From: a bacterium
Lineage (GTDB): Bacteria > Auribacterota > UBA3054
DNA: 64,000 nucleotides
Assembly (NCBI GenBank): GCA_017963805.1
Contig: JAGCTE010000015.1
Location: 122,350-186,349 of the forward strand
Direction: 5' to 3'
In this document: piece after piece, positions 2,287-53,459 of the stretch
How positions within the stretch are numbered: position 1 is the first letter of the stretch
How the letters are laid out: each line of letters opens with the position of its first letter
Position numbers and translations under genes: made by a program
Notes under the pieces: generated by a model
Databases searched by the model: none
The model's input: the letters and a program-made list of their open reading frames with translations, nothing else
What the model was told of the DNA's origin: nothing

Positions 2287-3606
2287 ATGGAAGAGCTCAT
2301 CGAAGTCAGGCTCATTGCCGACCCAATCGTCTGCGACCAGCTTTCCGAACTTTGGGACGATCCCGAAGCCGATTTTTCCGTGGAAAAACTCACGGATTCT
2401 GAAAAGGCCGTTTTCAGTCTTTTTTTGAAAAGCGAGGAAGAAGCAAGCCGATCCGAAGCAAAGCTTCTTGCTCTCGCCAAGTTCCTGACCTCCGATCTTT
2501 CCTTGGAAAGAAGGATCGTCAAAAAAGAAGACTGGGCGGAGAAGTGGAAGGAAAATTTCCACGTCAGCAGAGTAGGGAAGAACCTCGTCATCGTGCCTTC
2601 CTGGGAGAATTACTCTCCTGAACCTAACGACATCATCCTCGTCAACGATCCCGGCATGGCCTTCGGCACAGGGAGCCACGGCACCAGCAAAGCCTGTTTG
2701 GAATTCCTTGAGGAACTCTCCTTAAAGAACCATCCCCAGAGTCTTCTGGACGCCGGCACCGGCACGGGCGTCCTGGCTGTCGCCGCCGCCAAATTAGGCA
2801 TCCCCGACATCGACGCCTTCGACAACGAGCCCCAGGCCGTCACGGCCGCCAAAGAAAACGCCGAAAAGAACAACGTCGAAATCAACGTTTTTCAGCAGGA
2901 TCTCTTTTTTTACGCCCCCAATAAGAAATACGATATAGTTATCGCCAACATTCTCTGCGCCGTCTTAGAGCGCAATGTGGAGCGCCTGATGGCCGCCGTG
3001 GCGCCCAACGGCCACCTCGTTTTGGCCGGCATCCTGGACGAGCAGTATCCCGCCCTCTCAGTGCTCTTCACAAGCCTTGGCGCCATAGAGCAAAGATCGA
3101 CGCTTATAGAAGGCTGGAGAACGGGCGTCTTCAAGCTTCCCGAAACGCCAAGGCCCATAGAGACCGTCCCGCAGACTGAACCCGAAATGGAAGAAGCGGC
3201 CGCTTGGTTCAGCGATAAGTGGCACATCCCCAAAAGCGCCTACATATCCAGTATGAAAGAGCCCAAGGACAACTACTGGTACGTCGTAAGGGATCCTGAA
3301 ACGAAAAAGATCATCGCCGGCGCCGGCGTCATTCCCAACGATTTCCACGCGAGGCCTGACCTCGCGCCCAACCTTTGCGCCCTTTTCGTGGAAGAGCCCT
3401 TCAGAAAGCGGGGACTGGCGGGCGCGCTTCTAAACCACATCGCCAGGGACATGCAGACAAAGGACTGCGGCACGCTTTACCTCGCCACCGAGCACACCTC
3501 TTTTTACGAACGCTACGGCTGGGATTTCTACACCTTCGTCAAGGAAAGCAATTCCGATCACATGACGAGACTTTACCGCCACGTATGGATGGACGAGCGA
3601 AAATAA
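2287..3606 (+). CDS. prmA: Ribosomal protein L11 methyltransferase PrmA fused to a C-terminal GNAT acetyltransferase-like domain
   Basis: 439 aa. Residues ~1-290 carry the PrmA motifs (DPGMAFGTGSHGTS, LDAGTGTGVLAVAAAKLG, DIVIANIL). Residues ~300-439 resemble a GNAT fold (RKRGLAGALLNHI...YERYGW). Confidence 0.75.
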   Translation: MEELIEVRLIADPIVCDQLSELWDDPEADFSVEKLTDSEKAVFSLFLKSEEEASRSEAKLLALAKFLTSDLSLERRIVKKEDWAEKWKENFHVSRVGKNLVIVPSWENYSPEPNDIILVNDPGMAFGTGSHGTSKACLEFLEELSLKNHPQSLLDAGTGTGVLAVAAAKLGIPDIDAFDNEPQAVTAAKENAEKNNVEINVFQQDLFFYAPNKKYDIVIANILCAVLERNVERLMAAVAPNGHLVLAGILDEQYPALSVLFTSLGAIEQRSTLIEGWRTGVFKLPETPRPIETVPQTEPEMEEAAAWFSDKWHIPKSAYISSMKEPKDNYWYVVRDPETKKIIAGAGVIPNDFHARPDLAPNLCALFVEEPFRKRGLAGALLNHIARDMQTKDCGTLYLATEHTSFYERYGWDFYTFVKESNSDHMTRLYRHVWMDERK

Positions 3607-4532: not shown

Positions 4533-4931
4533 TCAATTCAGCTTGAAGGAGGAGGGGAGTAGGGCGGAGAGAGTCGTCTCCTGGTAGGTGCCGTCGGTCT
4601 TGGCCATGAGGATAATGAGGTCGCCCTTGGGGGAGAATTCCGAGAGCACTTGCCGGCAGATGCCGCAGGGGACGGCGAATTCGGTTTCGTTGTAGCAGAG
4701 GGCGATGGCTGTTGGATCCGCGCCGCCGTTTACGATCATGTTGCAAACGGCGGCGCGTTCCGCGCAGATGGTGGCGCCGTAGGAGGCGTTCTCGATGTTG
4801 CAGCCCGTGAAGACTGTTCCGTTCTTCGTAAGGATGGCGGCGCCCACTTTGAATTTGGAATAGGGGGCGTAGGCCTTTTCCCTGGCTTCTATGGCCTGAT
4901 TAACGAGTTCCTGCGCGGTCTTGGTATCCAT
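4533..4931 (-). CDS. cdd: Cytidine deaminase
   Basis: 132 aa. Zinc-binding motifs CAERAA and PCGICRQ. Its start codon abuts or overlaps the mksB stop. Confidence 0.85.
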   Translation of the reverse strand: MDTKTAQELVNQAIEAREKAYAPYSKFKVGAAILTKNGTVFTGCNIENASYGATICAERAAVCNMIVNGGADPTAIALCYNETEFAVPCGICRQVLSEFSPKGDLIILMAKTDGTYQETTLSALLPSSFKLN

Positions 4932-7900
4932 TATTTTTTGCCTTTCGGTTTTGATTTAGCTTTGGCTTTCGGCTTCGCTTTGGGAGCGGGCTTTTTGGCG
5001 GCGGGCTTTTTCACGGCTTTTTTCGGCGCCGCTTTTTTCGCTTTGGTTTTTGCGGGAGCGGGCTTCTTTTCTTCCTTGGGATCTTCGGGTTTTTCCGGTT
5101 CGGGAGCGGCTTTCACGCCGATGGTGAAGCTTTCCTCTTCGTCGTTCTGACTGAAGATGTCCATTTGCTGGCCTTCCTGGGATTCCCAGACGAAGTTGCC
5201 GATGAAGATCTCGTTATTGGCGTTCTTCTCGAGGAGCAGCGTTGTGGATTCCCTCATGGCTTCCGTGACGCCGTCCATTTCCGGGGTGGCGATGACAAGG
5301 GAGAGGCCAAGTCTGTTGGCGAAGCGCAGAAGTTCTTCCCTCCTTTCCGCGTCGATGCCGTAGAAAGCCTCGTCGAATAAGAGGAAGCGGATCTTGGCGC
5401 CGATCTGGTTGTAGAGAAGCGCGCTCATGGCCATGATGAGCAGGTAGTTCGGCACGGCCTGTTCGCCGCCCGATCCGAGGCGGCGGATGTCGTTCGTCAG
5501 CTCGATGCCCTCGCCCTCGGTGCCTGTCACTTTCACGTGCAGCTGGTAGTCGAACCAGTGGCGGTAGTCGAGGAAGGAGGGGAGAGAGCCGTCGGGCTGC
5601 ATGCGCAGTTCCCCGATCTTCGATTCGAAGAAGGCTTTCAGCTGTTCCTGGCTGTCCTCGTCGATGTCGCCGGCTCTTCTTACGATGCCGTAGACCTGGC
5701 GGTACTCCCCTTTGATCTTCTGGGTGAAGCGGTATTGGGAGCGGCCGAAAGAGAGGCCTTCCAGCATGAGGTTGACGGCTTCAAGACTTTCCTTGAGGCG
5801 GTAGAGGTCGCGGGTGTACTGGTTGGAGAGGTCGCCGAGGATGGTCTTTTCGAGAAGCTTCCTTCTGTTTTCGGAAACGGAATTCTCGAGCTGCGTTAGC
5901 TGGTCGTTCAACCTTGCCGTTATGGTCTTGAGGTCGCGGCCGTCCTGGTCGATGAGGTCGTTGATGTCTTCGCGGTAGGTGAAGGCGTACTTGGTCCAGA
6001 GCAGCTCGTGGTGGATCAAGCCGCCTTTCGAGCGGGAGTCGTCGCTGCCAACTAAGCTTCCGATCTCGCGGTTGATGACGCGCTCCTGGATCTTGATTAT
6101 TTCAGCGAGCCTGCCTTCCTGGACGTTCTCGGCGCCGTAGGTCTCCTTAAGGTAGCTCTCGAGGTCGGGGTATTCCTCGCCGAGGCGGTCCTCAAGGATC
6201 TTCTTCTTGTCGGCCGCCTGGTTGATGGCCTCGTTGTAGCTGAGTCTGGTCTTGGCGTTCTGGGCCTCTAAGATGGAGACGCGCTCTTTGTAGCGGGCGA
6301 TCATCTCGACAAGCTCCTCGCGTTCCTTTTCCTCGTCGTTCAAACGTTTCTTAAGGATGTCTAATTGCTTGTGGATGTCGCCGGTGGTCTGGAACTGCTT
6401 GTCTTCCCTGAGTTCCTTGATCTGCTTGGTTATCCTCGCGATCTGGCGCTGGGATCTGGCCTGCTGGCTCTGGGCCGTCTCGACTCTTTCCTTTATCTCG
6501 GCAAGGAGATTGTCGTTGGCGGCTCTCTGCGTCAAGCGGTGGGCGATGAGCCAGGGCGAGACTTTTTCCTCGAGCAGGATCTTGATCTTGTATACGGCTT
6601 CTATGGTCTCGCTGAGATTGCCCTGCTTTTTCCCAAGTTCGTCGGCGATGTTGGATAGCTCTTTGTTTTTGATCTTCTGTTCGGTCAAAAGTTTTTCCTG
6701 GGCGGCCTGGCGGCGCGCTTTGCCGAGCAAGCCTTCCGCTTCGCGCTTGACGTAGCGGTAAACGGCGCGTTCTTTCACAAGGCCTTCCCTGGAGAGCCAG
6801 TCGCCGTCGGGGGTGGCGGCTAGGTCGCAGATCCTTATCTTGCCGAGCTGCGTGTCGACGAAGCAGCGGGCGTAGCCGTTTGCCGTCTTCAAGTATTTGG
6901 CCAAAGAGTTTTCCAGGGGCTTCGGGCTCTTAGTGGCCATGAGCTTCGAGGTGTCGGCGATCCTGATACCGGGGTTGGCTTTGCCAGCCAACCTTATGAC
7001 GGCTTCGAGATCGTCCTCTTCGGGGATGATGGTGCCGAGCCACTCGTCGCCAAGGAAAGACTCTATGAGGTTCATGAGCTGGGGCGGCGTGTTGGGCGCG
7101 AAATCAAGCATGGTGAAGAGCGGTTCGGCTTTCAAGCCCTCCCTCTTTACGGCGTCAAGGAAATCGCGGTAGCCGATTATCCTCGGCATCACTTCCATGA
7201 TTGGGACGGAGGCTTTTATTTCGCTTTCCTTCGTGAGGTCGGCAAGGCGCAGTGTGAGCGTCTGCTTTTCGTCCCTCAGGGCCTGCAGAAGATTGTCGGC
7301 AGATCTTATCGCCAGCTTTTGCGAGCGGGAGAGCGCCTCGGTGTCGCATTCGGCCGTTTCCTCGGCGTTCTTGTAGGCTTTCTTCAGCGAGGCGACGGTC
7401 TTCGAGAGATGAAGGGCCGCTTCGTTCACTGTCTCGGGGCAGGTGGGAAGCGATACGGTCTTTATGACGGCGTTCTGGGAGCGGATGGCTTCCAATACGT
7501 CGGCGCCGGCGTTCGCCTTGTCTTTTTCAAGCGTGGCCTGCTTTTGCAGTTCTTTTTCCGTCTCTTCCTTGAAGGTGACGGAATCCTCTTTCAGTTTCGC
7601 CAAGTCCTTTTCAAGGCGTTCGGCTTCTTCCCAAAGTTTGGCGCCGGTGCCGGTCCGAACTTCGGCAAGCGTGGTCCTTGTCTGCTCGAGCTTGGGCAGC
7701 AGGTCGTCGAGCTTGTTCTTCGCGTCGATCTGGTTCTGGCGGTTGACGGCCACGGCCCTTTCCTGGCTCTTCAGTTCGGAGGCGAGGTTGTTGAGGGAGT
7801 TTCTCAGCCTCAGGTAGCGGCACTCCTCGATCCTTGTTTTTGAAGCGGTGATCTTGGAAACGGTCTTGTTTGCTTCGTCAAGAAGTTCGGCTTCTTTTTT

Positions 7901-8683
7901 TAGGCCTTTGATGTCGCTCTCTATGGTCTCGAGGTTCTGCAGCGTCGTCTCGATGTCCTGGAAGACCTGATGGTCGGGGGCGGGGAGAAGAGCCGCGAAG
8001 AGGCCTTCGAAGTCTCTGGCCTTGACGACCAGGTCCTTGTAGGATTTGCTGGCTTTTAAGAGATCCGCCACGCGCTCGAAATTTGAGCGGCCGCCGAAGA
8101 AGCGGTTCGCGACTTGCGTGCGGTAGCGGCCGATGTCGTAAACTCTCGTCTTGCCGATCAGGCCGGGCAGTTCCTTTTTGTCCACCGGGCGGTACTGGGG
8201 CGCTTCGGAAACGTCGTTCACCCTTATCGTAAGCTGGACTTCGGATAGGGGAGCGTCCACTATGAAGCCCCACATCTCGGGTCTTTGGTCAAGGTTTTCC
8301 GCGAAGGCGCCGACGCCGATCGTCACAGGGTTCTGGCTCTTGGGGTCGAGGAGCTCCAAGGCGACATATCCTACCGCGCCGCCGGCTCTGCCCACCTTGC
8401 CGGTCTCGAAGTTGTGCTGCAAAAGAACGCCGGAGAGGCTGCGGCCGGATTCGGACCTGCCGCCGATCACGGTGGCGGCGTTGAACATCAGTCTCTGTCC
8501 GCCGGTCAATGCCAGCTGCACCGCGTCGATGATGGTCGTCTTGCCGGTTCCGTTGTTGCCCATCAGAAAGAGGCTGCCGTGGATATTGATGGTCTCGTCA
8601 GCGAAGTTATGGAAGTTGATGAGGCGCAGGGCCCTTAAGTTCAAAGCGTTTTCCCAACTGTGGTTTCCGTTCATCGTGTTCAC
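4931..8683 (-). CDS. mksB: MukB-like SMC ATPase MksB (Wadjet JetC-like) with a C-terminal lysine/alanine/proline-rich histone-H1-like tail
   Basis: 1250 aa. N-terminal Walker A GNNGTGKTT, very long coiled-coil middle, C-terminal Walker B/D-loop LLFDEAFYGID. The last ~60 aa read KPAPAKTKAKKAAPKKAVKKPAAKKPAPKAKPKAKAKSKPKGKK. It is the third gene of the mksF-mksE-mksB operon. Confidence 0.8.
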   Translation of the reverse strand: MNTMNGNHSWENALNLRALRLINFHNFADETINIHGSLFLMGNNGTGKTTIIDAVQLALTGGQRLMFNAATVIGGRSESGRSLSGVLLQHNFETGKVGRAGGAVGYVALELLDPKSQNPVTIGVGAFAENLDQRPEMWGFIVDAPLSEVQLTIRVNDVSEAPQYRPVDKKELPGLIGKTRVYDIGRYRTQVANRFFGGRSNFERVADLLKASKSYKDLVVKARDFEGLFAALLPAPDHQVFQDIETTLQNLETIESDIKGLKKEAELLDEANKTVSKITASKTRIEECRYLRLRNSLNNLASELKSQERAVAVNRQNQIDAKNKLDDLLPKLEQTRTTLAEVRTGTGAKLWEEAERLEKDLAKLKEDSVTFKEETEKELQKQATLEKDKANAGADVLEAIRSQNAVIKTVSLPTCPETVNEAALHLSKTVASLKKAYKNAEETAECDTEALSRSQKLAIRSADNLLQALRDEKQTLTLRLADLTKESEIKASVPIMEVMPRIIGYRDFLDAVKREGLKAEPLFTMLDFAPNTPPQLMNLIESFLGDEWLGTIIPEEDDLEAVIRLAGKANPGIRIADTSKLMATKSPKPLENSLAKYLKTANGYARCFVDTQLGKIRICDLAATPDGDWLSREGLVKERAVYRYVKREAEGLLGKARRQAAQEKLLTEQKIKNKELSNIADELGKKQGNLSETIEAVYKIKILLEEKVSPWLIAHRLTQRAANDNLLAEIKERVETAQSQQARSQRQIARITKQIKELREDKQFQTTGDIHKQLDILKKRLNDEEKEREELVEMIARYKERVSILEAQNAKTRLSYNEAINQAADKKKILEDRLGEEYPDLESYLKETYGAENVQEGRLAEIIKIQERVINREIGSLVGSDDSRSKGGLIHHELLWTKYAFTYREDINDLIDQDGRDLKTITARLNDQLTQLENSVSENRRKLLEKTILGDLSNQYTRDLYRLKESLEAVNLMLEGLSFGRSQYRFTQKIKGEYRQVYGIVRRAGDIDEDSQEQLKAFFESKIGELRMQPDGSLPSFLDYRHWFDYQLHVKVTGTEGEGIELTNDIRRLGSGGEQAVPNYLLIMAMSALLYNQIGAKIRFLLFDEAFYGIDAERREELLRFANRLGLSLVIATPEMDGVTEAMRESTTLLLEKNANNEIFIGNFVWESQEGQQMDIFSQNDEEESFTIGVKAAPEPEKPEDPKEEKKPAPAKTKAKKAAPKKAVKKPAAKKPAPKAKPKAKAKSKPKGKK

Positions 8684-8688
8684 CTAAT

Positions 8689-9432
8689 TTAAAAATTTTC
8701 CTGTTCGTTCTCTTCTTCCGCCGTCTCTTCACCGTCGCTCTTCAGGCTGTCCGTTTTGGAATAGAGCCTGGCGATCTCCTTGAAGGTGAGGACGTCCGGG
8801 CGGTAGCAGTGGATGCCCGGGAGGAATTCGTACATTACCTGCTGCTCGAGGCCTTCCGGCAGACGCTCGTCCTTTCCGACGTCCGCTTTTTCCTTCTGCT
8901 CGATGAAGCGGTATTTGATGAGCTTCGGGAAGAGCGTGCGGCAGGCGTCGACGATCGCTTTCTCGCTCGATTCGCCGTCCTCGAGCTCCTCGTTGAAACG
9001 GTTAAAGCAGTACTGCACAAAGTCGGAGATCAAAAAGCGCAGCCTCTTGTCGTCGTCGTAATTGGAGTTGAAGTCGCGGAGCAGCTTCTCGTAGAATTCC
9101 AAGAGCAGCATGAAGACCGAGCACTCGTCCCTTCTCGTCAGGTCGAACATGTCCCTTTGCGAAGGCTTAAGGGAATTGTTGTAGAGCTGCGGCTTGATTA
9201 TCCTCGCGGCCTGGCGGTCGACGTAGAGCTCCCAGCCGAAGTAGCGCATGAAGAAATGGCCGACGGCTTCCTGGTTCAATCTCAGGTAGGCGAAGAGATC
9301 CGGGTCGTCCGTCTGGTAGAAGAAGGGCGATTCGAGAAGAATGTTGAGAAGCGCCCTGACGCTGTGGATGTTCAGAGAATCGATCTGGTCGGAGTAATTC
9401 TCCGCTTCGTTTTCAAAGTATTGTTCGTTCAT
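8689..9432 (-). CDS. mksE: MksE/JetB-like (MukE-like) condensin subunit
   Basis: 247 aa, acidic, helical. The size and its position between the MksF-like and MksB-like genes match DUF4194-type MksE. Confidence 0.6.
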   Translation of the reverse strand: MNEQYFENEAENYSDQIDSLNIHSVRALLNILLESPFFYQTDDPDLFAYLRLNQEAVGHFFMRYFGWELYVDRQAARIIKPQLYNNSLKPSQRDMFDLTRRDECSVFMLLLEFYEKLLRDFNSNYDDDKRLRFLISDFVQYCFNRFNEELEDGESSEKAIVDACRTLFPKLIKYRFIEQKEKADVGKDERLPEGLEQQVMYEFLPGIHCYRPDVLTFKEIARLYSKTDSLKSDGEETAEEENEQENF

Positions 9433-9438
9433 AGTTTT

Positions 9439-10980
9439 TTAGTTGTTTTCCTGAAAGTCTACGGTGTAGTCGGGGGAGGAGAAATACCATTTGCCTCCCT
9501 TGAACTCGGCCTGCGGCGCGTTTTTGTCAGGCTGCTTCAAGGTGTATCCCAAGCGGATCCCGTGCTTGCGTCCTATCTTGTAGAATTTGACGGAGTCCAT
9601 GTAGTTCCTGATGTCGTCCATGTTCTTCAAAGAGAACAAATGGATGGGGCCGCGTTGTCCCATGGGGTATGCTTTCAAAAGCATGAAGTCCCTTAGGCGT
9701 TTGGCCTTTGCCTTCTCCAGTTCGCGGCTGGCTTGGGCGGAGCCGGTCTTGGCGATTATGGCGGCGTTGCGGAAGGGCGGCCTGGCCGCGCGGCGGCGCC
9801 AGTAGTTGGGCCTCGGCGGGGGAACGCGGTCTTCCGGAGTGCCGCCGCCCATGTCGTTTATGATCTGTCCTACGGAGAAGAGCTCCCTTAGGAAAGACTT
9901 GATCTCGGGCAGGGCTTCGTCGGGAGCGCCGATGCATTCGTTGGCGCGGCGGCGCAGGATCCTGATCCTGATGTTGCGGTGCCTGATGTCGTCGAGGTAC
10001 TGCCTGATGCGGCTGATAAGTATCCTGACCTGCTCGTTGACTCTCAGGCAGAGGAGCTGGAAGATGCCTTCGGGAGCGAAGAAGGGGATAAGCCTAGCCA
10101 GCATCTGCTCTATTGGGTCCTCCTGCTCGGCCAGGGCGCCGGACAAAGGATTGTTCTCGGCGTGCAGCCTCATCGCTTCCCTGGCGTTCCTCAAGATGGC
10201 GAGCCCCTGCTGGGAGTTCCAGCGCGACAAAGCGCTGTAAACAGGCGGCGTCAGGTTGGCCACGCGCTGCAGATACTGGTCGACGTAGCGGGCCAGGCGG
10301 TCTATTATCTGCGGCAGAGTTTCAAGCTGGAAAGGCTCGATGTTGAAAGTCGCTATCCTGGCGCCGAAGTCGCTGATCTCGTTGGCGACCAGGCGGCAGC
10401 GGTTGTCGAGCTCACTTATGTTCCTTGCGAGCCTGCGCAGCTCCGTTTCCGAAAGATTTTCGCCGCGGGAGAGGCAGAGGCCGATCTTTTCGACGAGCTC
10501 CTGGAGGTCCAGGAGGTGGTCCTGGTCAAGCGAGACCGCGTTCAGGTTTTCCACTGAGCGCATGAGTGAAAGACTCTCGAGCAGCGCCCTGGTATGGTCG
10601 GTCAGGCGGTAGAGGAATTTCTGCACTCTCCTGTCGGCGATGTGCTGCAGCCTCTTCGGCTCGATGCGGCGCTCGACGTTGCCCCAGAGCATAAGCTGCT
10701 CCATGTCGGCCCGGAAGGCCTGCTGGCTGTAGGGGCCGGCGGTCTCCAAAAGCGACTGGACGGCGTCGTAGATGTCGTTGTGATATTTCTCGACTTCATG
10801 GGCCTGGCGGCGCAGGAAGAGGAAATACAGAATGGTGGCGTAATACCACCTGCGCTCGGAACTGAGGAAGGCGCAGTGACTGACTGGAAGCAGGTCCAGA
10901 AACGGAGGCTCCGGCGCCACAGCCTGAAAAAGATCGGGCTGCGGCGCGGGATCGATCTGTTCAATTATATTGTTGTCCAT
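9439..10980 (-). CDS. mksF: MksF/JetA-like (MukF/kleisin-like) condensin subunit
   Basis: 513 aa, first gene of the three-gene operon. The size and predicted helical nature match DUF3375-type MksF. Confidence 0.6.
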   Translation of the reverse strand: MDNNIIEQIDPAPQPDLFQAVAPEPPFLDLLPVSHCAFLSSERRWYYATILYFLFLRRQAHEVEKYHNDIYDAVQSLLETAGPYSQQAFRADMEQLMLWGNVERRIEPKRLQHIADRRVQKFLYRLTDHTRALLESLSLMRSVENLNAVSLDQDHLLDLQELVEKIGLCLSRGENLSETELRRLARNISELDNRCRLVANEISDFGARIATFNIEPFQLETLPQIIDRLARYVDQYLQRVANLTPPVYSALSRWNSQQGLAILRNAREAMRLHAENNPLSGALAEQEDPIEQMLARLIPFFAPEGIFQLLCLRVNEQVRILISRIRQYLDDIRHRNIRIRILRRRANECIGAPDEALPEIKSFLRELFSVGQIINDMGGGTPEDRVPPPRPNYWRRRAARPPFRNAAIIAKTGSAQASRELEKAKAKRLRDFMLLKAYPMGQRGPIHLFSLKNMDDIRNYMDSVKFYKIGRKHGIRLGYTLKQPDKNAPQAEFKGGKWYFSSPDYTVDFQENN

Positions 10981-11064
10981 AATCCCTTCTTATACGAATA
11001 CACACTCAATATATTGTATCAAAAGGGCCTTTTTTTAACAATATATTGGGCCGAAGGGAGGGGA

Positions 11065-11593: not shown

Positions 11594-14206
11594 ATGAAAA
11601 AAGGATCTATTTTTCTCCTGACGGCCCTCGCTTTCGCCGCGCTTTTGTCGTATGCGGAACCGACGGTCTTCTTTACGGAAAATTTCGAAAGTTACGATAC
11701 GGGCGATTTTCTGCCGCAGTGCGAAACAGCCGTAATTTACCAGCCCAAACACCAGACGAACTTCGCCTACAAGGTCGAAAGCGGCGTCATGGATACCAAA
11801 TGTATTACCGTAACTAAGAACGACCCCGACAAAGTCAATTCCGGCGATTCCGGCGTCTGGATCCCCACTGGCGCCAGCGAGGAAATGTTCACCGAGACCG
11901 GCGTCATGAGGATACGTTTGAAACACCGCTCCATCAGCAACATCAGCGGCTTCATATTCGGCAACGGCGCAAGCGGCCGCGCCATTTGGGCCTACCGCAA
12001 CGGCGGCACCTTTTACATCAAAAGGGACAACGACGGCAAGCACGATATCCAGCTGACGGGCATCGGCGGAGACAAGGACAACGAACTGGAATTCAACATC
12101 CAGTATCCCTCCCGTCGACTCATCAACGTCATAGCTAATGGGGTGACCAACACTCCGGATAATTTTACATTTTCAAACGTTAGGATAACGCATATCGGTG
12201 TGGCAGTTATGGCCAACGGATGGATAGCTGAGGGCAGCGGCTACGTTACGGCCGTAGACGACATCGAGGTCGCTTATGAAGCGCTGACCACGCCGGAGGT
12301 CTACGTATCGACTGATCCTCTGCTTATCGGACGCCAAGTCGCCAGCCGCGATTTCGTCATAGCCAACAACGGCGGCGGCGAATTCACTTACACCGTCTCT
12401 GCCCTGGGCGATCCGGAATGGCTCTCTTTCGCCCCCACCGGCACTTGTAAGACCACCAAGAGCCACAAGGTGACCTTCAACCGCGATGTCATGGGCGACG
12501 GCTTCTACCGCACGATTCTGACTTTTGACTGCTCCCCTTACGGAGTATTTGACATCCCTCTCAAAATAAGGTCTGGCAAAGTTTTTTATTATGAAGATTT
12601 CGAGCAGCCTTATATGCAGCCCGGAGAGATACACGGGCAGCAGGATTGGTTTGGCAAAGAGGAAGGCAACGAATATTCACCTGAGACAAACGAGGCCTAT
12701 GTGAACACGCCCAGCGATCCCTGGGACGGCCAGTGCCTGACTGTGGAAAGAGCAGGCGGCTGGGACGGCTACTGGGTGCCCATATGGACGCCCTCCAACC
12801 TGATTATCAAGGTCTCCTGCAAATTCCGTTGGGATTTTGCCAACGATTCCGATCACTTCCAATTCCGTTCCAGCTATTGGATGAATCCTGCCGTGTTTCA
12901 CATTGAGTACACTAGCGGGAATGAAATAAAGCTCTGGGGCTACAACGACACTGCCGGTTATCCTCTGGTCGGCGAATATGGACTGCCAGGCGGAACATGG
13001 CACGATATGTCCTATACTATGGACTTCAGGATGCATACTTTAAATGAACTCACCTTCGGTGATTTCAAGACAAACTTTAATAATATGCCGCTGAGGAAAA
13101 GGATGAACGACAGAGTCGTGCCGGTGTTGTATTATGAGAAATTTGGATTTAGTTCCGGCTCATATGATGACAACGGAAAACTCGGCGTCTCAATCGACGA
13201 CCTCCTTATTACGGAAGTCGAGCGTCCCAAGATCTCCATTCCCGTTTACGAAAAAGCGGTCGCGATGGGCGGTTTGAGCCTTTACACCAACGTTTTGGAA
13301 AACGCCGGCGCCCAGAACTACAAGTTCACCGCCGAGGTCCTGGATTATCCGGACAACTTGAAACTCTCCCGCTACAAAGGCTCTATCGGCACCAAGGGCT
13401 TGGTCCTCTACAGGCTTGACCGCAAAGGCCTTGCGGACGGCTACTACACCGCCAGGATCAAATACGATTGGGTCGCCTCCAACAGCACCAACTCCGGCTC
13501 CTTCGTCCAGCTCGTGACCTTCGGCGTCGGCGGCTGGTACTACGCGACCGAGTTTGAGGGCGAACCCTTCCATCTCGGCCCCATCGACGGCCAGGAATGC
13601 TGGAAGATGGAATACGCTTACGGAGACATCGATCTGAGGCTCTTTAACGGCATCCAGTGCCTCTATTTCGACCAGGCCGGCAAAGCACAGGTTTCCGCCG
13701 GCGTTCCGGCCCAGAGCCATTACTCCTTCCGCTGCCTTGTCAACCTGCCGGACAACAACAACACGACCTACCTTAGGTTCTGCCAGAACACCGGCGAAGG
13801 CTTTTTGCCTTTCTTCATCAGGAGGGACAGGACATCCCATGAGGTCGTACTTGGCTACAAGCCAGCCGGCGAGGACGATGTCGTCGAGCTTATGAGGAAC
13901 AGCACGCTCGGCAAGTGGCAGACCTTCTCCTACACCATGGACCTTGACGAAGCCAATTCCTGCGTTACGCAGGTCACGCTTGGCGATTACGTGAAGGATT
14001 GCTATGTCGGCGAGATCGTCCTCAACACCGAATTCGACGGCCAGCCCATTTCCTCCTTCAGCATCGAGGCCGTGAACGACGGCCCGGACGAGGAAAGGGA
14101 CACCGGCGCCTACATCAAGAACGTTGTGGTCTGCGACCATACGCTCCCCGAGCCGGCCATCTTCGGTCTGCTTGCCGTCTCGCTGCTTTTGCTTCGCAGA
14201 AAATAA
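11594..14206 (+). CDS. Large secreted PEP-CTERM surface protein (paralog 1 of 4), three copies of an internal module plus Ig-like domains
   Basis: 870 aa. Has a signal peptide and conserved module starts FTENFESYDTG, FYYEDFEQPY and YYATEFEGEPF. The C-terminus reads LPEPAIFGLLAVSLLLLRRK (PEP motif, TM helix, basic tail). Confidence 0.8.
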   Translation: MKKGSIFLLTALAFAALLSYAEPTVFFTENFESYDTGDFLPQCETAVIYQPKHQTNFAYKVESGVMDTKCITVTKNDPDKVNSGDSGVWIPTGASEEMFTETGVMRIRLKHRSISNISGFIFGNGASGRAIWAYRNGGTFYIKRDNDGKHDIQLTGIGGDKDNELEFNIQYPSRRLINVIANGVTNTPDNFTFSNVRITHIGVAVMANGWIAEGSGYVTAVDDIEVAYEALTTPEVYVSTDPLLIGRQVASRDFVIANNGGGEFTYTVSALGDPEWLSFAPTGTCKTTKSHKVTFNRDVMGDGFYRTILTFDCSPYGVFDIPLKIRSGKVFYYEDFEQPYMQPGEIHGQQDWFGKEEGNEYSPETNEAYVNTPSDPWDGQCLTVERAGGWDGYWVPIWTPSNLIIKVSCKFRWDFANDSDHFQFRSSYWMNPAVFHIEYTSGNEIKLWGYNDTAGYPLVGEYGLPGGTWHDMSYTMDFRMHTLNELTFGDFKTNFNNMPLRKRMNDRVVPVLYYEKFGFSSGSYDDNGKLGVSIDDLLITEVERPKISIPVYEKAVAMGGLSLYTNVLENAGAQNYKFTAEVLDYPDNLKLSRYKGSIGTKGLVLYRLDRKGLADGYYTARIKYDWVASNSTNSGSFVQLVTFGVGGWYYATEFEGEPFHLGPIDGQECWKMEYAYGDIDLRLFNGIQCLYFDQAGKAQVSAGVPAQSHYSFRCLVNLPDNNNTTYLRFCQNTGEGFLPFFIRRDRTSHEVVLGYKPAGEDDVVELMRNSTLGKWQTFSYTMDLDEANSCVTQVTLGDYVKDCYVGEIVLNTEFDGQPISSFSIEAVNDGPDEERDTGAYIKNVVVCDHTLPEPAIFGLLAVSLLLLRRK

Positions 14207-18475: not shown

Positions 18476-18530
18476 TTTTCTTTTACTTGATTTTTTTGTA
18501 TAATGTTTGCGGATAAAAAACGAGGTATTT

Positions 18531-20354
18531 ATGAGACGAATTATTAAATTTTCCCTTTTTCTTTCTTTAGTTTTCATGTCATATGTTTGCTTTGCAAACG
18601 AGGATATGGATTTTTCTTCAAACTTCGAAAAAGAAAAAGATCTGCTTGAACGGATAACGAAACTTCAGGCTCAAGTAAAAGACATAAAAGGGCAATACAT
18701 TTCAATAACTTCCCAATTGGAGAAGATACAGTTAAACATTCCTAAAGGACTTGTAAATTTTCCAGACCTTTTTGTCATTAATGATGACACGCTTGTTGTC
18801 GGGCCAGACGGGAATATATATTATGACGGATATGATGTAAGAAACGTTTTATGTTCTATAAACGGTTATTACGAAAGCGATAATTCAACAAACAATACTG
18901 AGCAAACAAGATCGGGATATGTTACGACTGAGCAATTTAATCAATTGGCTAGTCTTGTCTTTTCGTTAAGCGCCAATTGCCAGACGCTTAGCAATAATCT
19001 AAGTTCGATATCAAATACTGTTTACAATATTACTCAGCAAATGAGCATGATGGCGGCTACTGTACAGTATTTATCAACTCAGTGCGAAAATCTCAGTCAA
19101 AAATGTGACCTGATAGATTCTGCAATAGACATAAAAGACGACGGCAGGATAGTGATGAACGCCACATCTCCAATAATAGGAATCATTGAACCTAATTTCA
19201 CACCTTCACTTTATTCTTATCCTTCTATTTGGAGTTGGGATGGAATATGTACTAAATTTAACGTTTCGACTAACTCGCATTTGAAAAGCATAACTTTGTA
19301 TTGCAATGATATCAATAAAATAATGTCACCAGAAAGCGTTTACGTTTCTACTGGTGTTCCCAATAATGGCAGCTATCAAATGGCCTATTGGTACTGCAAT
19401 AGCGTAAATACCAATAGATTTCCTTTGTGTACTTACTCTTTTTCAAACCCAATCCTTATTAGGTCCGACAGGTTCCATTTATTAGGAATACGAAAAATAG
19501 GTAATAACCTTATATATCCATATGTTTGCAATGGATACAGGAATGGCGGATTGTACAAGCCTTATGGAGCAAACGAGTCTGAACTTCCGGTGAGGGGAGA
19601 TGATCCGCCTGATCCTGGACCTAGGGTTGGGCCATCAGATCCGCCTATGACATTGTCAGAATTTATGAACATGACATTTGAGTATTATTGGGAACCTTGT
19701 TTCGATTCATATGAGTTATGGTCTGTGTTCAATTTTGTTGAAGACGTCGGATTTACCTTTGATAAACACGGACTTGAATTGAAAAGCGGAGATATATCGA
19801 TTGCAGGAACTAGGGTTGTAACTGATGAAAGCCTTGGCGTAGCATTAACCAACAAAGCGGAAGTTTTAGGAGGGAAAATATCTTGGGATTCTTTTTGCCA
19901 AGGATTGAAAGATTATCTTATTACTGTTAACGGCGGAACAATAACTGGAGAATTGTACATTGAAGATCTAATTTTGCCTAACAATGGCAGTTGGCTTATA
20001 GGAAATGCCACGACTAGATCAGATATAAAAATTAACAATCCTAATGGATGCATAACGACATCTTCTGGTGATTTAAATTTGGCTTGCAATGGAGAAGATA
20101 CAAAAATAATTGCACATGATTTTGTGCAGTTTAGCGATTCAGAACAATGTGGGAAAGTGGTTATAAGTGCTGGTAGCACTTCTGTGTCAATTGCATCAGA
20201 TCTTTCTTCGGATGCAGTTGTAACTGTAACCCCCTCTCAACAAACAGATGTCAAATACTGGGTTGAAATCAACAGTCTAGGCGATGGATCGATAGTTATA
20301 GATGATAGAACAAACTGTGATTTGAGTTTCTTTTACATGATTATGAGAAAATAA
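18531..20354 (+). CDS. Island protein 1: secreted protein with an N-terminal coiled-coil and a beta-helix-like Cys-containing C-terminal region. A paralog starts at 62362
   Basis: About 607 aa from MRRIIKF. Has a signal peptide, then a heptad-like stretch LERITKLQAQVKDIKGQYISITSQLEKIQ, then short repeated beta-strand-like units. Confidence 0.55.
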   Translation: MRRIIKFSLFLSLVFMSYVCFANEDMDFSSNFEKEKDLLERITKLQAQVKDIKGQYISITSQLEKIQLNIPKGLVNFPDLFVINDDTLVVGPDGNIYYDGYDVRNVLCSINGYYESDNSTNNTEQTRSGYVTTEQFNQLASLVFSLSANCQTLSNNLSSISNTVYNITQQMSMMAATVQYLSTQCENLSQKCDLIDSAIDIKDDGRIVMNATSPIIGIIEPNFTPSLYSYPSIWSWDGICTKFNVSTNSHLKSITLYCNDINKIMSPESVYVSTGVPNNGSYQMAYWYCNSVNTNRFPLCTYSFSNPILIRSDRFHLLGIRKIGNNLIYPYVCNGYRNGGLYKPYGANESELPVRGDDPPDPGPRVGPSDPPMTLSEFMNMTFEYYWEPCFDSYELWSVFNFVEDVGFTFDKHGLELKSGDISIAGTRVVTDESLGVALTNKAEVLGGKISWDSFCQGLKDYLITVNGGTITGELYIEDLILPNNGSWLIGNATTRSDIKINNPNGCITTSSGDLNLACNGEDTKIIAHDFVQFSDSEQCGKVVISAGSTSVSIASDLSSDAVVTVTPSQQTDVKYWVEINSLGDGSIVIDDRTNCDLSFFYMIMRK

Positions 20355-20356
20355 AA

Positions 20357-22930
20357 ATGAGATTCATACCATTAAAAACAAAAATCATATTGATTTTTAT
20401 GGCATTAATGTGTTCGCTAATGATTTTCGCGGATAATGATCATTTTTATTATTACTATTGTTTTAATAGAAATTCTATGACTAATGTTGCCATGGGTTTC
20501 CCGTTTGGGATTTGTGAAATCATCCAAAGCAAATTATGGATTAAAGTGGAAGGTCAAGGACATTTACCTACATTTATAGCGAATGTACCGTTGGAGAACA
20601 AAACGGCGACTGATGTTATATATAATGACTCTCAGGGAAATGAATACTTTCCGGATCGTGATTTTAAATTAGTGTTTCAATGGGATCAGGTTGATTATGA
20701 AGACATAGAGGCTGAAGATGAAGTTAGAGGGGATATATTAAAAGAATATTATGAAGATCCAGCCATAACAATATTACACGATGTCGATATTTATTGTTTT
20801 ACCCCGAATTACACCGCATACTGTATTGAGATGGATAATAGCAGTAATGTTAAAATGGAAATATCTGATAATAATTTAAATTATGTGCCATGCACATTTA
20901 CAGATAATATAGAAACTACTATTGGATCTGGAAACAATCATAAAAGATATTACAAAACGGATTGGATTAGAAATCACAAGTATTATATAAAAGTCTATGG
21001 TCATGATGAAATTAACGATTATTATTCATCGGTACATGATTATAGTTTTACCATTAGAAGCGTTAAACCTATCGTATTAGTACATGGCATTAATTCGCAT
21101 CCTATAGATTCTAATGATAACAAGACAGCTTTTGAATGCATAAAAAAACATTTACCTAGAGCTGATGATCTTGACCCTATTTTACCTCTTGATTTTCCGT
21201 GGAATGATTCAGTGGGGGAATATACAGATTATTGTTTGAATGACAACTACTCTTTGTCAACTTTTATAAATAATAATTGTCAATATCTTGATAAAAAACC
21301 AATTGTGATTTCTCATTCGATTGGTGGCATGTTGATAATGAGACAAATTATTAATAACGATAACATATTGGGTAAAATTGACAAATTTATTTTTTATGGA
21401 ACTCCTTTTTGCGGTTCTGATAAAGCAAGCTGGTGGCTAACAAAAAATATACATATAACAAGCAACGATAATTTAAATCACCTTAAAAGGGGCTCTAAAC
21501 ACATTTGGAATTTGCTATCTAATATTCCGTCTTCATTCATCAATGATAAGCAGTCCACCTATTTTTATGGCAGCTCTGGATTTATGTTCTTCTTAGTATA
21601 TGGCGGTATTGATAGTGATAGCGTTGTATCTATTTCGTCTGCAAATTTGCCCGCAACTTTAGGTTTATCTTCTCTGGCAATATCCATTGACAAGAATCAT
21701 ACAGATATGAAGAAGTTATCATTCCCTTGTGAAGAAGAAGATTTGGTTGTATACAATATTTTAAAGGAATACATTAACGAATCTCCAGATAATAATACTG
21801 TAAATAATATATTTGATCCTTTATTGCGATTTTTTGGAGAATATAATTCCGCCATTGAACTACAAATGATTGATTATCACGATTTTGATTTTTATGAAAT
21901 TGAATATAGAGATTCAAATTCCGGAACGGAAGATTGGACAACATTAAGAATAGTTGAGGGTGATATTGAAAACAACTTAAACTATTATCATAGTGGAATT
22001 CTAAATTATGATAGCCAGCCAATTTTGATTAGATTAAAAAGTGATCATTTAGATAAAGTCAGTGATATACATTCTGTTAATATTAATGCTGGTAAAACGA
22101 CTTTTTTTAAAATGAAAATTATTAACGGAATTGCTGGCGATGATGTTATTTCACATTCTCTTAGTAATGATTCTTCTCTTCCGTTTTATAATATTCAGTT
22201 TCGTTTAAAAAATTTACCTAGACCTTGGATTAAATTCAAATTGTTGTCGCCCCCTAGACATCATAGAGAATCAAGACATTTAAATGTTAGATGGGAATGT
22301 GTTGATAATAGTAGATCTGGCGAAGACTATTCTATTTGGCTAGTTGTTGGATCGCAAAATAATAATGTTATTGATAGAATCAACGTTACAAATCTAACAT
22401 CCTATAATCTGAGCTTTTCCGATTACAATATGCCTCAAGGAGAGTATTGGTGGAAACTTGTTGCTGAGAATAATACAGATGATTTGGTTGAAAGCGAAAA
22501 GCGACCTTTTCATGTGGTAAATCAAGACTATTTTGATGACTCTGACGGAGATGGCTATGATGATTATGAAGAGTATATAAGGCACTCCAATCCGTATGAT
22601 GCAAACGACATTCCATTAATAATTGATTCTGGTGAAATCTGTCCCTTAGCATATTTAGATCAACAATACTTTTATAAAATAGAGACCAGTTTCAGAAATA
22701 ATATTTCATGGAGTTATAGAGGAAAGTTGCCAGAAGGAATAAAGCTAAGTCACAATGGAATTTTAAGCGGCATGTCAAAAGAACTTGGAACTTTTAATTT
22801 CACAATTCTTGTTTGCGGTCCTGGGCTAAAAGAAGATCAAATCAATATGACCTTGGAAACTTTAATACCACCAAATTCTGAAGTTACAACTGGAACTGGA
22901 TATTTTAAATCAGAAGGAGAAGAAGAATGA
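20357..22930 (+). CDS. Island protein 2: secreted multidomain protein with a lipase class-2/PGAP1-like alpha/beta-hydrolase core, an FN3-like segment, an EF-hand-like loop and a C-terminal putative-Ig (He_PIG-like) repeat
   Basis: 857 aa. Signal peptide. PIVLVHGINSHP (oxyanion region) and VISHSIGGMLI (nucleophile elbow) sit ~80 aa apart, as in Bacillus LipA. Also DSDGDGYDDYEE and LPEGIKLSHNGILSGMSKELGTFNFTI. Confidence 0.6.
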   Translation: MRFIPLKTKIILIFMALMCSLMIFADNDHFYYYYCFNRNSMTNVAMGFPFGICEIIQSKLWIKVEGQGHLPTFIANVPLENKTATDVIYNDSQGNEYFPDRDFKLVFQWDQVDYEDIEAEDEVRGDILKEYYEDPAITILHDVDIYCFTPNYTAYCIEMDNSSNVKMEISDNNLNYVPCTFTDNIETTIGSGNNHKRYYKTDWIRNHKYYIKVYGHDEINDYYSSVHDYSFTIRSVKPIVLVHGINSHPIDSNDNKTAFECIKKHLPRADDLDPILPLDFPWNDSVGEYTDYCLNDNYSLSTFINNNCQYLDKKPIVISHSIGGMLIMRQIINNDNILGKIDKFIFYGTPFCGSDKASWWLTKNIHITSNDNLNHLKRGSKHIWNLLSNIPSSFINDKQSTYFYGSSGFMFFLVYGGIDSDSVVSISSANLPATLGLSSLAISIDKNHTDMKKLSFPCEEEDLVVYNILKEYINESPDNNTVNNIFDPLLRFFGEYNSAIELQMIDYHDFDFYEIEYRDSNSGTEDWTTLRIVEGDIENNLNYYHSGILNYDSQPILIRLKSDHLDKVSDIHSVNINAGKTTFFKMKIINGIAGDDVISHSLSNDSSLPFYNIQFRLKNLPRPWIKFKLLSPPRHHRESRHLNVRWECVDNSRSGEDYSIWLVVGSQNNNVIDRINVTNLTSYNLSFSDYNMPQGEYWWKLVAENNTDDLVESEKRPFHVVNQDYFDDSDGDGYDDYEEYIRHSNPYDANDIPLIIDSGEICPLAYLDQQYFYKIETSFRNNISWSYRGKLPEGIKLSHNGILSGMSKELGTFNFTILVCGPGLKEDQINMTLETLIPPNSEVTTGTGYFKSEGEEE

Positions 22931-25323
22931 AACTAGGCAAATCTTTAGTTATTGTTATTTTTTTGTTGATATTAAGCGCTTGGTCAACATCAAATTCTTA
23001 TTTAAATAAATACCCTGGCATAGTTGCTATAACTACCAAAAGTGGAAATGCATTATTCGGAAAAAGGGACGAGAACAAAATTTTCCTTAACAAGGGGGAT
23101 CTTTATGAGGAATGCGATGGATGCGGATATATATACGAAAAATACGGTTTTATAGATGACATGACCAGAAGTTTTATTAAAGAAAATATCGAGCCGTCTA
23201 GAACGCCGTATAAAAATGTTAATAAGGAGTTGGAAAAACAATATGATGATTTTCAATCCGTAATCAGAAGTAAAAAACTGCCCGATAATTGGGTTGATAA
23301 CCCGGAAGGTCGTTATCAGTCTATTAAAGAAGGACTTTTAAGGGAGATCGATCGTTTGAAGGTATCCGGAAATTCCAAAGCAGACGAAAAGATAAAACAG
23401 CTAAAGGCAGAATATGCCTTTTATACGAACCGATATAGCGATTCAAAAATATTTGAAAAAATATCAGATCCTGACTTTGACCTTGATCAGGATGGATTAA
23501 CCAATTTGGAAGAATTCTACTGTCAGTCAGACCCTCTTGTCAGAAGCGGGCTTGCCGTATCTCCGGCTTTTTATAAATTTACTCTTAACGACAGTCTTGT
23601 TTACACCGGTAAATTCAGTATTGCAAATTTGACAAACACCAACAGGACATATTCTATTTACAGTAGATATCAAAGTTCTGATAATCGTTATGCTCCCAAA
23701 ATCGTACCGCTAAATTCTAAATTTTGCGTAGATAAAAATGGTTATATGGTGTTTAACATACCTCCAAAATCGAAGCAGTATTTTTTGTATCTGTTAAATG
23801 CTGAATATCTACCTTATTGTTTTGGCAATCTTTATAGTGTCAGCGTAAGGATTAAAAACGATTTGGGATTTATGGGGACGGATCTTGGAAATGTAGTTTT
23901 TTATATGTTTGGCAACAAGGGGTCCGAGATTTCAAAGACGGATAATCTTTATCCGAAATCCGGCGCAAGATTACAGCCGGAGAACAATACTCTTTCATTT
24001 ATATGGAAATCTGGTGAGCGCAATATTTCGAAGAATAGAGAGGAAGAGATAAGGTATGTTATACAGTTTTATAATGCGGATAAAAAAATGGCTTTTGATT
24101 ATTTCTGTTTTACAAACAAGTTTTTTGCTCCGGCTAAGAATGATCTCAATACTTTCTCGCCAGGCATTTATTTTTGGAGAATCATAAAGCAAGATGCATT
24201 CAGCGCCCCTGCTTGTTCAGATTGGAATTGGTTCTCCATAGGGAAAAAAGCAGACGAAGGCTGCTCAAATACATTGGAAAAAGGAAAGAGATTAATTCCG
24301 GAGAAAAAATATAATTGTGGAATAGCCTATTACGATATGTATAAAGGAATTCCATTTGATTTTGATATTTGTCCGCTGAAAGCTTCTGAAAAACAACCTT
24401 TCATTTACAAACTTCCAAAAGATTTTGAATGTTTTTTCGATGACAATTATTGGCATTTAAAGGGAACCCCTCATGAAGTCGGAAGATGGACAAACATGTG
24501 GTTCCGTATTAAGGCGGATAGGGCCTGGACTAACATTTGTGTTTTTAGTGTTTATGATCCTGCCGAAGAGATTTTGTCGCGTTCTTTTTACGATTTGGGT
24601 AAGAAAGCTGTTGTTCATGATTTAACAGTTGATTATCGATTCGAATATCCATTGCAAAGTTATTTTGATATCATTTCTAAAACTTCTGATACCGTTTTAA
24701 GCAAAGATTATTCTGTCAAGATCTCACCAGATCTTCCGGATGGATTGACTTTATCATTTGAAGACGGAAGATATATCATATCCGGTATTCCTAAAAATGT
24801 CGGCGAGTTTATTGCAGAAATAACTTATGAAAAGGATAATTTGCTCAAAGAAAAGCATATTTTTAATATACGCACAAGCAAAAATCCCAAGCCGCTTACT
24901 TTTGCCGAAGAGTGGAATGTCGTTTACCTAAGCGAAGAACCTTGGGGGCATTACCAATATTTCATGGTGGGGTTTAAAAAAGGAATGGTCAGGCATATTT
25001 TGAGCGATGAAAAAAGTGTCAGATATCCTTTATCTCTAGATTATCTAGCGTATGGGAGAAAACGTATTATGCTTGATTCTTATGAAACTAGTTTTGGACA
25101 AAAGAGGAGAGCATATAAAAAGCACGACGAAAATCAGCAGGAAGTAGAATTGTTATCGCCTCTCCCCAACGGCATAAGGTTAGAAGAAAGCGACGGCAAA
25201 TTTTACCTTGAATGTGAATTGCGTTCAGTTGGAGCTTTTACGAATCTTATCAGGATAGTCAGTCAAGATGGCGTATATACAAACATGCATATTTTCAGAG
25301 TAGAAAAAGTAAAAACCCAATAA
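22927..25323 (+). CDS. Island protein 3: secreted protein with an EF-hand-like loop and several putative-Ig (He_PIG-like) repeats
   Basis: 798 aa. Signal peptide. Its start overlaps the gene 2 stop (ATGA). Has DLDQDGLTNLEE, and repeats LPDGLTLSFEDGRYIISGIPKNVGEF and LPNGIRLEESDGKFYLECELRSVGAF. Confidence 0.5.
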   Translation: MKLGKSLVIVIFLLILSAWSTSNSYLNKYPGIVAITTKSGNALFGKRDENKIFLNKGDLYEECDGCGYIYEKYGFIDDMTRSFIKENIEPSRTPYKNVNKELEKQYDDFQSVIRSKKLPDNWVDNPEGRYQSIKEGLLREIDRLKVSGNSKADEKIKQLKAEYAFYTNRYSDSKIFEKISDPDFDLDQDGLTNLEEFYCQSDPLVRSGLAVSPAFYKFTLNDSLVYTGKFSIANLTNTNRTYSIYSRYQSSDNRYAPKIVPLNSKFCVDKNGYMVFNIPPKSKQYFLYLLNAEYLPYCFGNLYSVSVRIKNDLGFMGTDLGNVVFYMFGNKGSEISKTDNLYPKSGARLQPENNTLSFIWKSGERNISKNREEEIRYVIQFYNADKKMAFDYFCFTNKFFAPAKNDLNTFSPGIYFWRIIKQDAFSAPACSDWNWFSIGKKADEGCSNTLEKGKRLIPEKKYNCGIAYYDMYKGIPFDFDICPLKASEKQPFIYKLPKDFECFFDDNYWHLKGTPHEVGRWTNMWFRIKADRAWTNICVFSVYDPAEEILSRSFYDLGKKAVVHDLTVDYRFEYPLQSYFDIISKTSDTVLSKDYSVKISPDLPDGLTLSFEDGRYIISGIPKNVGEFIAEITYEKDNLLKEKHIFNIRTSKNPKPLTFAEEWNVVYLSEEPWGHYQYFMVGFKKGMVRHILSDEKSVRYPLSLDYLAYGRKRIMLDSYETSFGQKRRAYKKHDENQQEVELLSPLPNGIRLEESDGKFYLECELRSVGAFTNLIRIVSQDGVYTNMHIFRVEKVKTQ

Positions 25324-35300: not shown

Positions 35301-39304
<4,004 letters not shown>

Positions 39305-45281: not shown

Positions 45282-45292
45282 AGGGGAATATT

Positions 45293-46960: not shown

Positions 46961-46972
46961 GCGGCTTCTCCT

Positions 46973-49945: not shown

Positions 49946-49946
49946 G

Positions 49947-50441: not shown

Positions 50442-50445
50442 AAGT

Positions 50446-51327: not shown

Positions 51328-51359
51328 CTTAATTTCTCCTTAACCTAAGGGAAAAACTA

Positions 51360-52349
<990 letters not shown>

Positions 52350-52360
52350 GTTTTCTCCTT

Positions 52361-53230: not shown

Positions 53231-53459
53231 GCCGGATATATTGCAAAAATCGTGCCAAAAATTAACCAACTATGTTTGAGCAATTTAATAAATTGGCCTC
53301 GCTGGATTTTGTCAAAATGACAAAGCGAAGTGAATGTTTTTAATCTATAAAAAAGGCTGTTTTTTAAGGATATTTATATATAGTTTGCTTTTGCGTATCA
53401 TTGTTATCGATTGAGATAATCCTTATAAACATCCGTTAACCAAAACCAACGAGGTTATT

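Follow-up and report, generated by a model that had tools for sequence, protein, structure and literature searches.

Organization of the operon

The window analysed here, a 64-kb stretch of bacterial DNA, carries on its minus strand, at 4931-10980, three tightly packed open reading frames (ORFs) that read as 513, 247 and 1250 aa. They encode a kleisin, a KITE protein and an ATPase of the structural maintenance of chromosomes (SMC) type, and form an operon of the MukBEF/Wadjet group. The sequence-only reading of this DNA had proposed the same assignment, and both profile and fold searches bear it out. The coordinates and the Walker A and B motifs that it gave also hold when the sequence is read directly. 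The genes and motifs, named after the Wadjet subunits JetA, JetB and JetC, are as follows:

9439-10980, minus strand: jetA-like kleisin, 513 aa (Pfam DUF2397, PADLOC JetA2, fold match)
8689-9432, minus strand: jetB-like KITE, 247 aa (Pfam DUF2398, PADLOC JetB2, fold match)
4931-8674, minus strand: jetC-like SMC ATPase, 1247 aa from ATG 8674 (alternative start GTG 8683, 1250 aa)
8534-8560, minus strand: Walker A of JetC, GNNGTGKTT (read directly; invariant in 15 members of the clade described below)
5459-5479, minus strand: ABC signature of JetC, LGSGGEQ (read directly; G1067-Q1072 invariant)
5351-5383, minus strand: Walker B and D-loop of JetC, LLFDEAFYGID (read directly; catalytic motifs invariant across the clade)

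The three ORFs are real genes and not chance, because they have Pfam and PADLOC matches, orthologous trios occur in 16 GTDB species, and the dN/dS (ratio of nonsynonymous to synonymous substitution rates) is low (0.06-0.14). The previously described gap of 6 nt between jetA and jetB (AAAACT) was found on direct reading. The other gap and the length of JetC probably have to be revised. The jetC gene more likely starts at ATG 8674 than at GTG 8683, because the GTG sits in an AGGTG Shine-Dalgarno-like motif 7 nt upstream of the ATG and because gene callers on six independent assemblies yield 1247 aa. The jetB-jetC gap is therefore likely to be 14 nt, not 5, and the product 1247 aa instead of 1250.

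Relationships of the three subunits

The kleisin matches Pfam DUF2397 (64.3 bits, cutoff 28.5) and PADLOC JetA2 (53.6 bits); the Pfam scan returned no PF18982 match. Its AlphaFold model (pLDDT 71) is composed of an N-terminal winged helix, a helical bundle, a linker that is predicted to be disordered at about residues 371-412, and a C-terminal winged helix. The best Foldseek match of the model in the PDB is the JetA of the Neobacillus vireti Wadjet-II system (9qe0_E, E 2.8e-9), followed by MukF. Nothing useful was found when the kleisin profile was compared with the PDB by sequence.

The KITE protein is a single lobe of two winged-helix domains with an acidic C-terminal tail. It matches Pfam DUF2398 (36.2 bits, cutoff 26.9) at profile positions 2-81 of 363 only, and aligns to either half of the PADLOC JetB2 profiles (6-93/404 and 215-307/420). 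The DUF4194 (PF13835) score of 16.3 bits is below the cutoff of 32.7, and the Pfam scan gave no match to the MksE family PF21980. The KITE model (pLDDT 73) best matches N. vireti JetB (nvJetB, 9qe0_D) over 220 of 384 columns; E. coli JetB (ecJetB), P. aeruginosa JetB and MukE come next among the fold matches, whereas no ScpB match has an E value better than 0.1. The KITE profile found nothing in the PDB by sequence. Almost every full-length member found in the family has a length of about 220-290 aa. A profile of the KITE alignment, searched exhaustively against 1.84 billion representative proteins, gave only 106 matches at E<=1e-3, including 34 at <=1e-30, and tandem KITEs, each matched over two stretches, were confined to E values of 1e-6 to 1e-4.

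The SMC ATPase matches AAA_29 and SbcC_Walker_B in Pfam, and JetC1 (235 bits) and JetC2 (130 bits) in PADLOC. SMC_N (31.7 bits, cutoff 40, N-terminal P-loop only) and MukB_N (19.4 bits, cutoff 23) remain below threshold. A single-sequence search of the PDB returned nothing useful, and the informative PDB comparisons are those made with the JetC family profile and by fold searches. Among solved SMC-complex structures the family profile detected only the type II JetC of N. vireti (9qe0_A, E 1.6e-24).

Judged by sequence profiles and predicted folds, all three subunits are closest to type II Wadjet and not to the type I/Mks families. The sequence-only reading had implied the type I/Mks-like families DUF3375, DUF4194 and DUF3584; this part was wrong, since none of them reaches threshold and DUF2397 and DUF2398 are found instead. 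The N. vireti type II system (nvJET-II; PDB 9QE0/9QE1) shares with the window operon the DUF2397 kleisin, the DUF2398 KITE and the jetA-jetB-jetC order, and is the best solved-structure relative for three of three subunits. It differs from the window operon in possessing JetD, the nuclease subunit. The structural hallmarks of type II are a tandem KITE of ~390 aa with four winged helices and a JetC of ~1360-1370 aa (Roisne-Hamelin et al., 10.1101/2025.03.10.642339). Both are absent here: the KITE is a 247-aa single lobe, whereas nvJetB is a 388-aa tandem, and JetC has about 1190 aa plus a 60-aa tail (1247 in total), whereas nvJetC has 1371 aa. The JetC relatives are 1196-1210 aa long. Scores against the NCBIfam type II equivalogs (TIGR02677-TIGR02680) are likewise far below cutoff (38 vs 166, 29 vs 125 and 79 vs 463 bits).

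The P. aeruginosa MksBEF operon, reportedly described by Petrushenko in 2011, and other nuclease-less Mks operons have the same three-gene kleisin-KITE-SMC composition, do not possess MksG/JetD and are chromosomal. They belong to another branch, with type-I-like JetA (PF18982) and JetB (PF13835), and their nearest JetCs are 18-20% identical to that of the window. MukBEF of gamma-proteobacteria, a chromosomal condensin, is also a nuclease-less system of the Wadjet group. The fold searches with the window subunits rank MukE and MukF near the top, but the trio has no match to the MukE and MukF Pfam families, so the similarity is at fold level only; MukB is also much longer than the window JetC. 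The operon is not Smc-ScpAB, as its SMC protein partners JetA-like and JetB-like proteins.

Absence of JetD and its origin

The families sought as JetD/Toprim were PF09983, PF09664, PF11795, PF11796 and PADLOC JetD. Pfam and PADLOC scans of the window ORFs of at least 200 aa found none of them. A profile of three sister-group JetDs was also run against all six-frame ORFs of at least 60 aa and found no JetD in the window. The earlier statement that no JetD adjoins the operon is upheld by these searches, and the six-frame scan also speaks against a jetD missed in translation, which the sequence-only reading had named among the findings that would refute it. At the related loci no JetD was detected within about 10 kb (precomputed Pfam annotation of called genes and the sister-JetD profile). 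The JetD-less count comprises 11 distinct species-level loci with at least 1.7 kb on both flanks. The operon therefore encodes JetA, JetB and JetC together, as a Wadjet defence system does, and lacks the JetD that accompanies them there.

Two possible hiding places of a nuclease were rejected. The 870-aa ORF at 11594-14206 has no PADLOC match, no significant Pfam match and no JetD-profile match. The ORFs of a low-GC island (18507-25323) have no PADLOC or JetD-profile match and only a sub-threshold match to LCAT.

The nearest relatives outside the JetD-less clade are complete Wadjet systems with JetD and with the same unusual subunit types. In locus L034 (KITE 50% identical) the jetABCD genes overlap and are co-directional, and the fourth gene matches JetD_C (45 bits), DUF2399 (41 bits) and PADLOC JetD1/JetD2. 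In L032 (KITE 40% identical) a 452-aa JetD is divergently transcribed immediately upstream of jetABC, and L033 (KITE 37% identical) possesses a co-directional jetABCD operon. The sister JetDs were confirmed by PF09983/PF09664 and by PADLOC JetD1/JetD2. The three systems resemble the window operon in subunit types, sizes and profile-match pattern, although their JetCs are only 26-28% identical to that of the window. They keep JetD and have no basic tail, whereas the window operon is JetD-less and tailed. Such JetD-bearing single-KITE systems with DUF2397 and DUF2398, all from metagenomes, have apparently not been described so far.

A neighbour-joining tree of JetC recovers the JetD-less clade as monophyletic, with L034 as its sister, followed by L032 and L033; type-I-like trios form the outgroup. 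Because the JetD-less clade nests beside JetD-bearing sisters, the loss of JetD is derived. A single loss at the base of the clade would be the simplest reading of this topology. The operon most likely descends from a JetD-bearing, type-II-related Wadjet plasmid-restriction system that lost its Toprim nuclease.

A word-based search identified L028, L029 and L030 as the closest JetC relatives outside the DUF2397/DUF2398 lineage. These are type-I-like trios of JetA (PF18982), JetB (PF13835) and JetC without an annotated JetD; two of them adjoin glycogen-synthesis genes and one adjoins Dot/Icm-type conjugation genes.

Distribution and conservation

The trio is rare. It makes up an isolated clade whose members come from uncultured bacteria, namely UBP3-like metagenome-assembled genomes (MAGs) from the rumen and their relatives. 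The closest GTDB species representative is 'bacterium UBP3_UBA3054', alongside MAGs from the ruminant gut. The kleisin, the KITE protein and JetC each constitute a small isolated family: JetC matches drop from at least 776 bits (at least 43% identity) directly to 93 bits. The jetA-jetB-jetC order is kept at all 16 GTDB loci and at further metagenome loci, 16 species retain each of the three reading frames intact, and the clade keeps 45-65% identity across deep divergence. No kleisin homologue was found in 72,556 PLSDB plasmids. Accessions of the clade were not found in the accessible part of the Data S1 operon table of PMC7617805, and a literature search on DUF2397 together with DUF2398 returned no paper.

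Compared with four related species, jetA, jetB and jetC of the window have dN/dS values of 0.06-0.14. This is the same as for bamA (0.06-0.10) and below the values for tadA, cdd, prmA and the gene of the 870-aa protein in the same species. The dS of jetABC matches that of the neighbouring genes. The operon is flanked by housekeeping or metabolic genes, whose synteny holds inside each of four sub-lineages but not from one sub-lineage to another. Inside a sub-lineage, the identity of JetABC is similar to that of the flanks or exceeds it; in one example it is 86-92% versus 68-72%.

The region upstream of jetA is also conserved:

10981-11050, minus strand: promoter/operator upstream of jetA (promoter scan and cross-species comparison)

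It contains TTGTTA-17-TGATACAAT at 11013-11041 and the ribosome-binding site AAGGGA. The 10-bp palindrome CAATATATTG occurs twice, at 11039-11048 and 11007-11016, overlapping the -35 and -10 regions of jetA, and is a probable operator for some regulator. About 70 nt upstream of jetA are nearly invariant in six species, although the coding dS is 0.5-1.0. The gene upstream differs among these species (tadA or the gene of the 870-aa protein), and the promoter stays through this local rearrangement; the operon therefore has its own conserved promoter. Synteny and a private promoter point to vertical, housekeeping-like inheritance.

These data bear on the idea that the operon is a non-functional Wadjet remnant decaying after the loss of JetD. 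The missing JetD agrees with such a process. Decay would not be expected to leave intact frames in 16 species, invariant catalytic motifs, a dN/dS of about 0.1, a conserved promoter and 45-65% identity across deep divergence. Selection, motifs and promoter effectively refute the idea, which is hardly credible.

Wadjet systems are expected to diversify rapidly (10.1101/2025.03.10.642339). The pattern seen in sequence comparisons is instead that of a constrained, vertically inherited module, unlike the rapid turnover expected of Wadjet defence, and the conservation equal to that of bamA counts against a continuing anti-plasmid role.

A basic tail on JetC in the rumen clade

In the rumen clade, to which the window belongs, JetC ends in an extension:

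4934-5113, minus strand: C-terminal extension of JetC, made up of an acidic Pro/Glu linker and then a histone-H1-like Lys/Ala/Pro tail

The extension comprises the last 60 residues, and the final 48 of them hold 22 Lys, with a net charge of +20. It is found in five of five rumen-clade orthologues, its composition kept and its sequence variable, and is absent from relatives at 45-52% identity. A composition filter picks out one further ORF in the window, a Glu-rich repeat, which leaves the extension as the only segment there that is so strongly basic. Lys/Ala/Pro tails of this kind are reminiscent of histone H1 and of H1-like nucleoid proteins in bacteria. An example of the latter is DdbA of Streptomyces (PMC3643593). 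The literature search found no report of an H1-like tail on an SMC-family ATPase. The tail probably gives the head additional non-specific affinity for DNA, which would suit a nucleoid-bound motor better than a sensor sampling small circles.

Probable function

The operon is probably a domesticated, MksBEF-like chromosomal loop extruder that descended from Wadjet. Like the MksBEF functional class, it is a nuclease-less kleisin-KITE-SMC operon that is stably chromosomal. The sequence-only reading had considered a condensin likelier than a defence system. The derived loss of JetD, bamA-like selection, synteny and the lack of plasmid copies favour this preference, short of proving it.

By analogy with MukBEF and Wadjet structures (PMC7617805, 10.1101/2025.03.10.642339), JetC would dimerise at the hinge, and JetA would bridge neck and cap and would itself dimerise via the winged helix and bundle at its N-terminus. 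A pair of single-lobe KITEs would dimerise on the central kleisin. Such a complex could entrap DNA in an ATP-driven manner and then extrude loops. Without JetD, extrusion would have no cleavage endpoint and its output would be DNA folding. The most likely role of the complex is that of an MksBEF-like condensin that helps to fold and segregate the host chromosome, and in the rumen clade the basic tail on the ATPase head would raise its non-specific DNA affinity.

Several points weigh against a purely chromosomal role. Two non-rumen sub-lineages carry defence-type genes at the jetB-jetC junction, which gives the locus some defence-island flavour. In L031 (10760-15162) the insert consists of an MmeI/Eco57I-type restriction-modification fusion (1062 aa) and an intact DUF1016/YhcG PD-(D/E)XK gene (376 aa). 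L020 (3909-4472) contains an internally deleted YhcG, 61-81% identical to the L031 copy, and L021 (7941-8438) contains an ORF6N gene. Purifying selection and vertical inheritance alone also cannot separate a condensin from a long-retained defence system. Furthermore, the absence of JetD refers to the window and the clade loci, and an unlinked jetD or another nuclease could lie elsewhere in the genome. As a separate observation, L023 has no insert at the jetB-jetC junction, which is a recurrent insertion site in non-rumen members.

These points lead to the possibility that the operon is still an anti-plasmid Wadjet, in which JetABC senses small circles and the nuclease (an unlinked JetD or a YhcG-type effector) is encoded elsewhere. 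The sister systems are bona fide Wadjet with JetD, the JetD of L032 is already uncoupled from the operon strand by its divergent orientation, and the jetB-jetC junction holds a YhcG gene in L031 and a degraded one in L020. Nevertheless, no JetD is present in 64 kb here or in ~10 kb at any clade locus, and neither the window species nor any other member of the rumen clade has a jetB-jetC insert, the two genes being 14 nt apart. The inserts also differ between genomes whose JetCs are 91% identical: because the YhcG of L020 is deleted and its close relative L021 has ORF6N, the inserts behave as transient passengers. Together with the bamA-like conservation, this makes persisting plasmid restriction quite unlikely.

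An immunity function might also work without a nuclease. In that case the motor would compact, silence or mis-segregate extrachromosomal circles in the manner of Smc5/6, and the tail would clamp DNA. We know of no bacterial example of nuclease-independent SMC immunity, the sequence carries no sign of selectivity for foreign DNA, and the housekeeping-like evolution fits a chromosomal role better. The Wadjet ancestry and a complete motor with intact ATPase motifs are compatible with such a function, and eukaryotic Smc5/6 provides a precedent, since it silences extrachromosomal DNA (PMC10586767). This form of immunity appears rather improbable.

A stronger version of the condensin reading is that the JetD-less clade represents the sole SMC condensin of its lineage, and with it a second independent Wadjet-derived replacement of Smc-ScpAB, alongside MukBEF and this time from a type-II-related branch. 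No smc, scpA or scpB was found within the 64-kb window. Such a replacement is a minority possibility and on the unlikely side. If true, the single-lobe KITE would show what the type II KITE was like before its duplication into a tandem, and the H1-like tail of JetC would be a novel means of tethering an SMC head to the nucleoid.

Relation to known nuclease-less systems

Nuclease-less operons of the Wadjet group are already known: MukBEF, P. aeruginosa MksBEF and several clades without MksG (PMC7617805 Fig. S1A). An origin of MukBEF/MksBEF-type operons by loss of JetD has also been proposed (PMC10586767). What is new is the rare DUF2397/DUF2398 branch, which combines a single-lobe KITE with a type-I-sized JetC and includes members with JetD as well as members without it. 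The members without JetD form a clade that is fixed in an uncultured lineage and in which one sub-clade gained the H1-like tail.

According to the current hypothesis, MukBEF and MksBEF are Wadjet minus its nuclease, co-opted for chromosome maintenance; the clade described here would be an independent example from a different branch. Its JetD-bearing sisters make the steps of domestication testable, namely what changed in JetABC after the loss of JetD and what the tail contributes. DUF2398 KITEs exist as single lobes, which bears on the origin of the type II tandem KITE. For annotation, JetABC matches alone should not label such operons as defence systems.

Neighbouring genes and other features of the window

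A fourth gene follows jetC on the same strand:

4533-4931, minus strand: cdd, tetrameric cytidine deaminase (TIGR01354, 150.5 bits, cutoff 114)

It is translationally coupled to jetC, its start codon and the jetC stop codon sharing 1 nt (TAATG at 4931). Only in the rumen clade is cdd a neighbour co-transcribed with the operon, and its product does not belong to the SMC complex; in distant clade members cdd is not adjacent to jetC. It was rejected as an alternative effector, since it scores above a housekeeping equivalog cutoff and follows jetC in the rumen clade only. The tadA gene was rejected as an operon member: it is inverted and displaced in L012-L014, where the jetA promoter region is intact.

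The neighbourhood is ordinary chromosome. On one side of the operon lie rpe, a phosphohexomutase gene, prmA and a GNAT gene, and on the other tadA, the 870-aa ORF and bamA. The rest of the window includes rnf genes, ligA, a Ser/Thr kinase gene, gdh, a Bat/MoxR operon and genes of BACON-domain proteins. The GC content of the operon equals the genomic background. A terminator scan detected no more sites than in shuffled sequence.

For the 870-aa ORF (11594-14206, plus strand), which lies between tadA and bamA, neither Pfam nor NCBIfam nor PADLOC gave a match. This ORF is conserved in the rumen clade and is the fastest-evolving of the genes compared (74-86% identity, dN/dS 0.17-0.23). The low-GC island at 18507-25323 (GC 0.32-0.41, background 0.55-0.57) contains three co-directional ORFs of 615, 857 and 798 aa with only a weak LCAT-like match, and has no flanking tRNA genes. 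A second drop in GC, to 0.41, is found at the window end (62001-64000).

The prmA gene (2287-3606, plus strand), for the ribosomal protein L11 methyltransferase, encodes 439 aa with an extra C-terminal GNAT domain and looks like a gene fusion. At 37472-39304 (minus strand) lies a Ser/Thr kinase with C-terminal LysM domains and a linker of Ala/Lys/Glu repeats, (EKAAA/KEAAE)n. An aerotolerance-type Bat/MoxR/VWA operon (43500-53269) precedes three proteins of ~840-860 aa encoded at 53460-62247 (plus strand), which are possibly paralogous and have a BACON_2 domain at a similar position.

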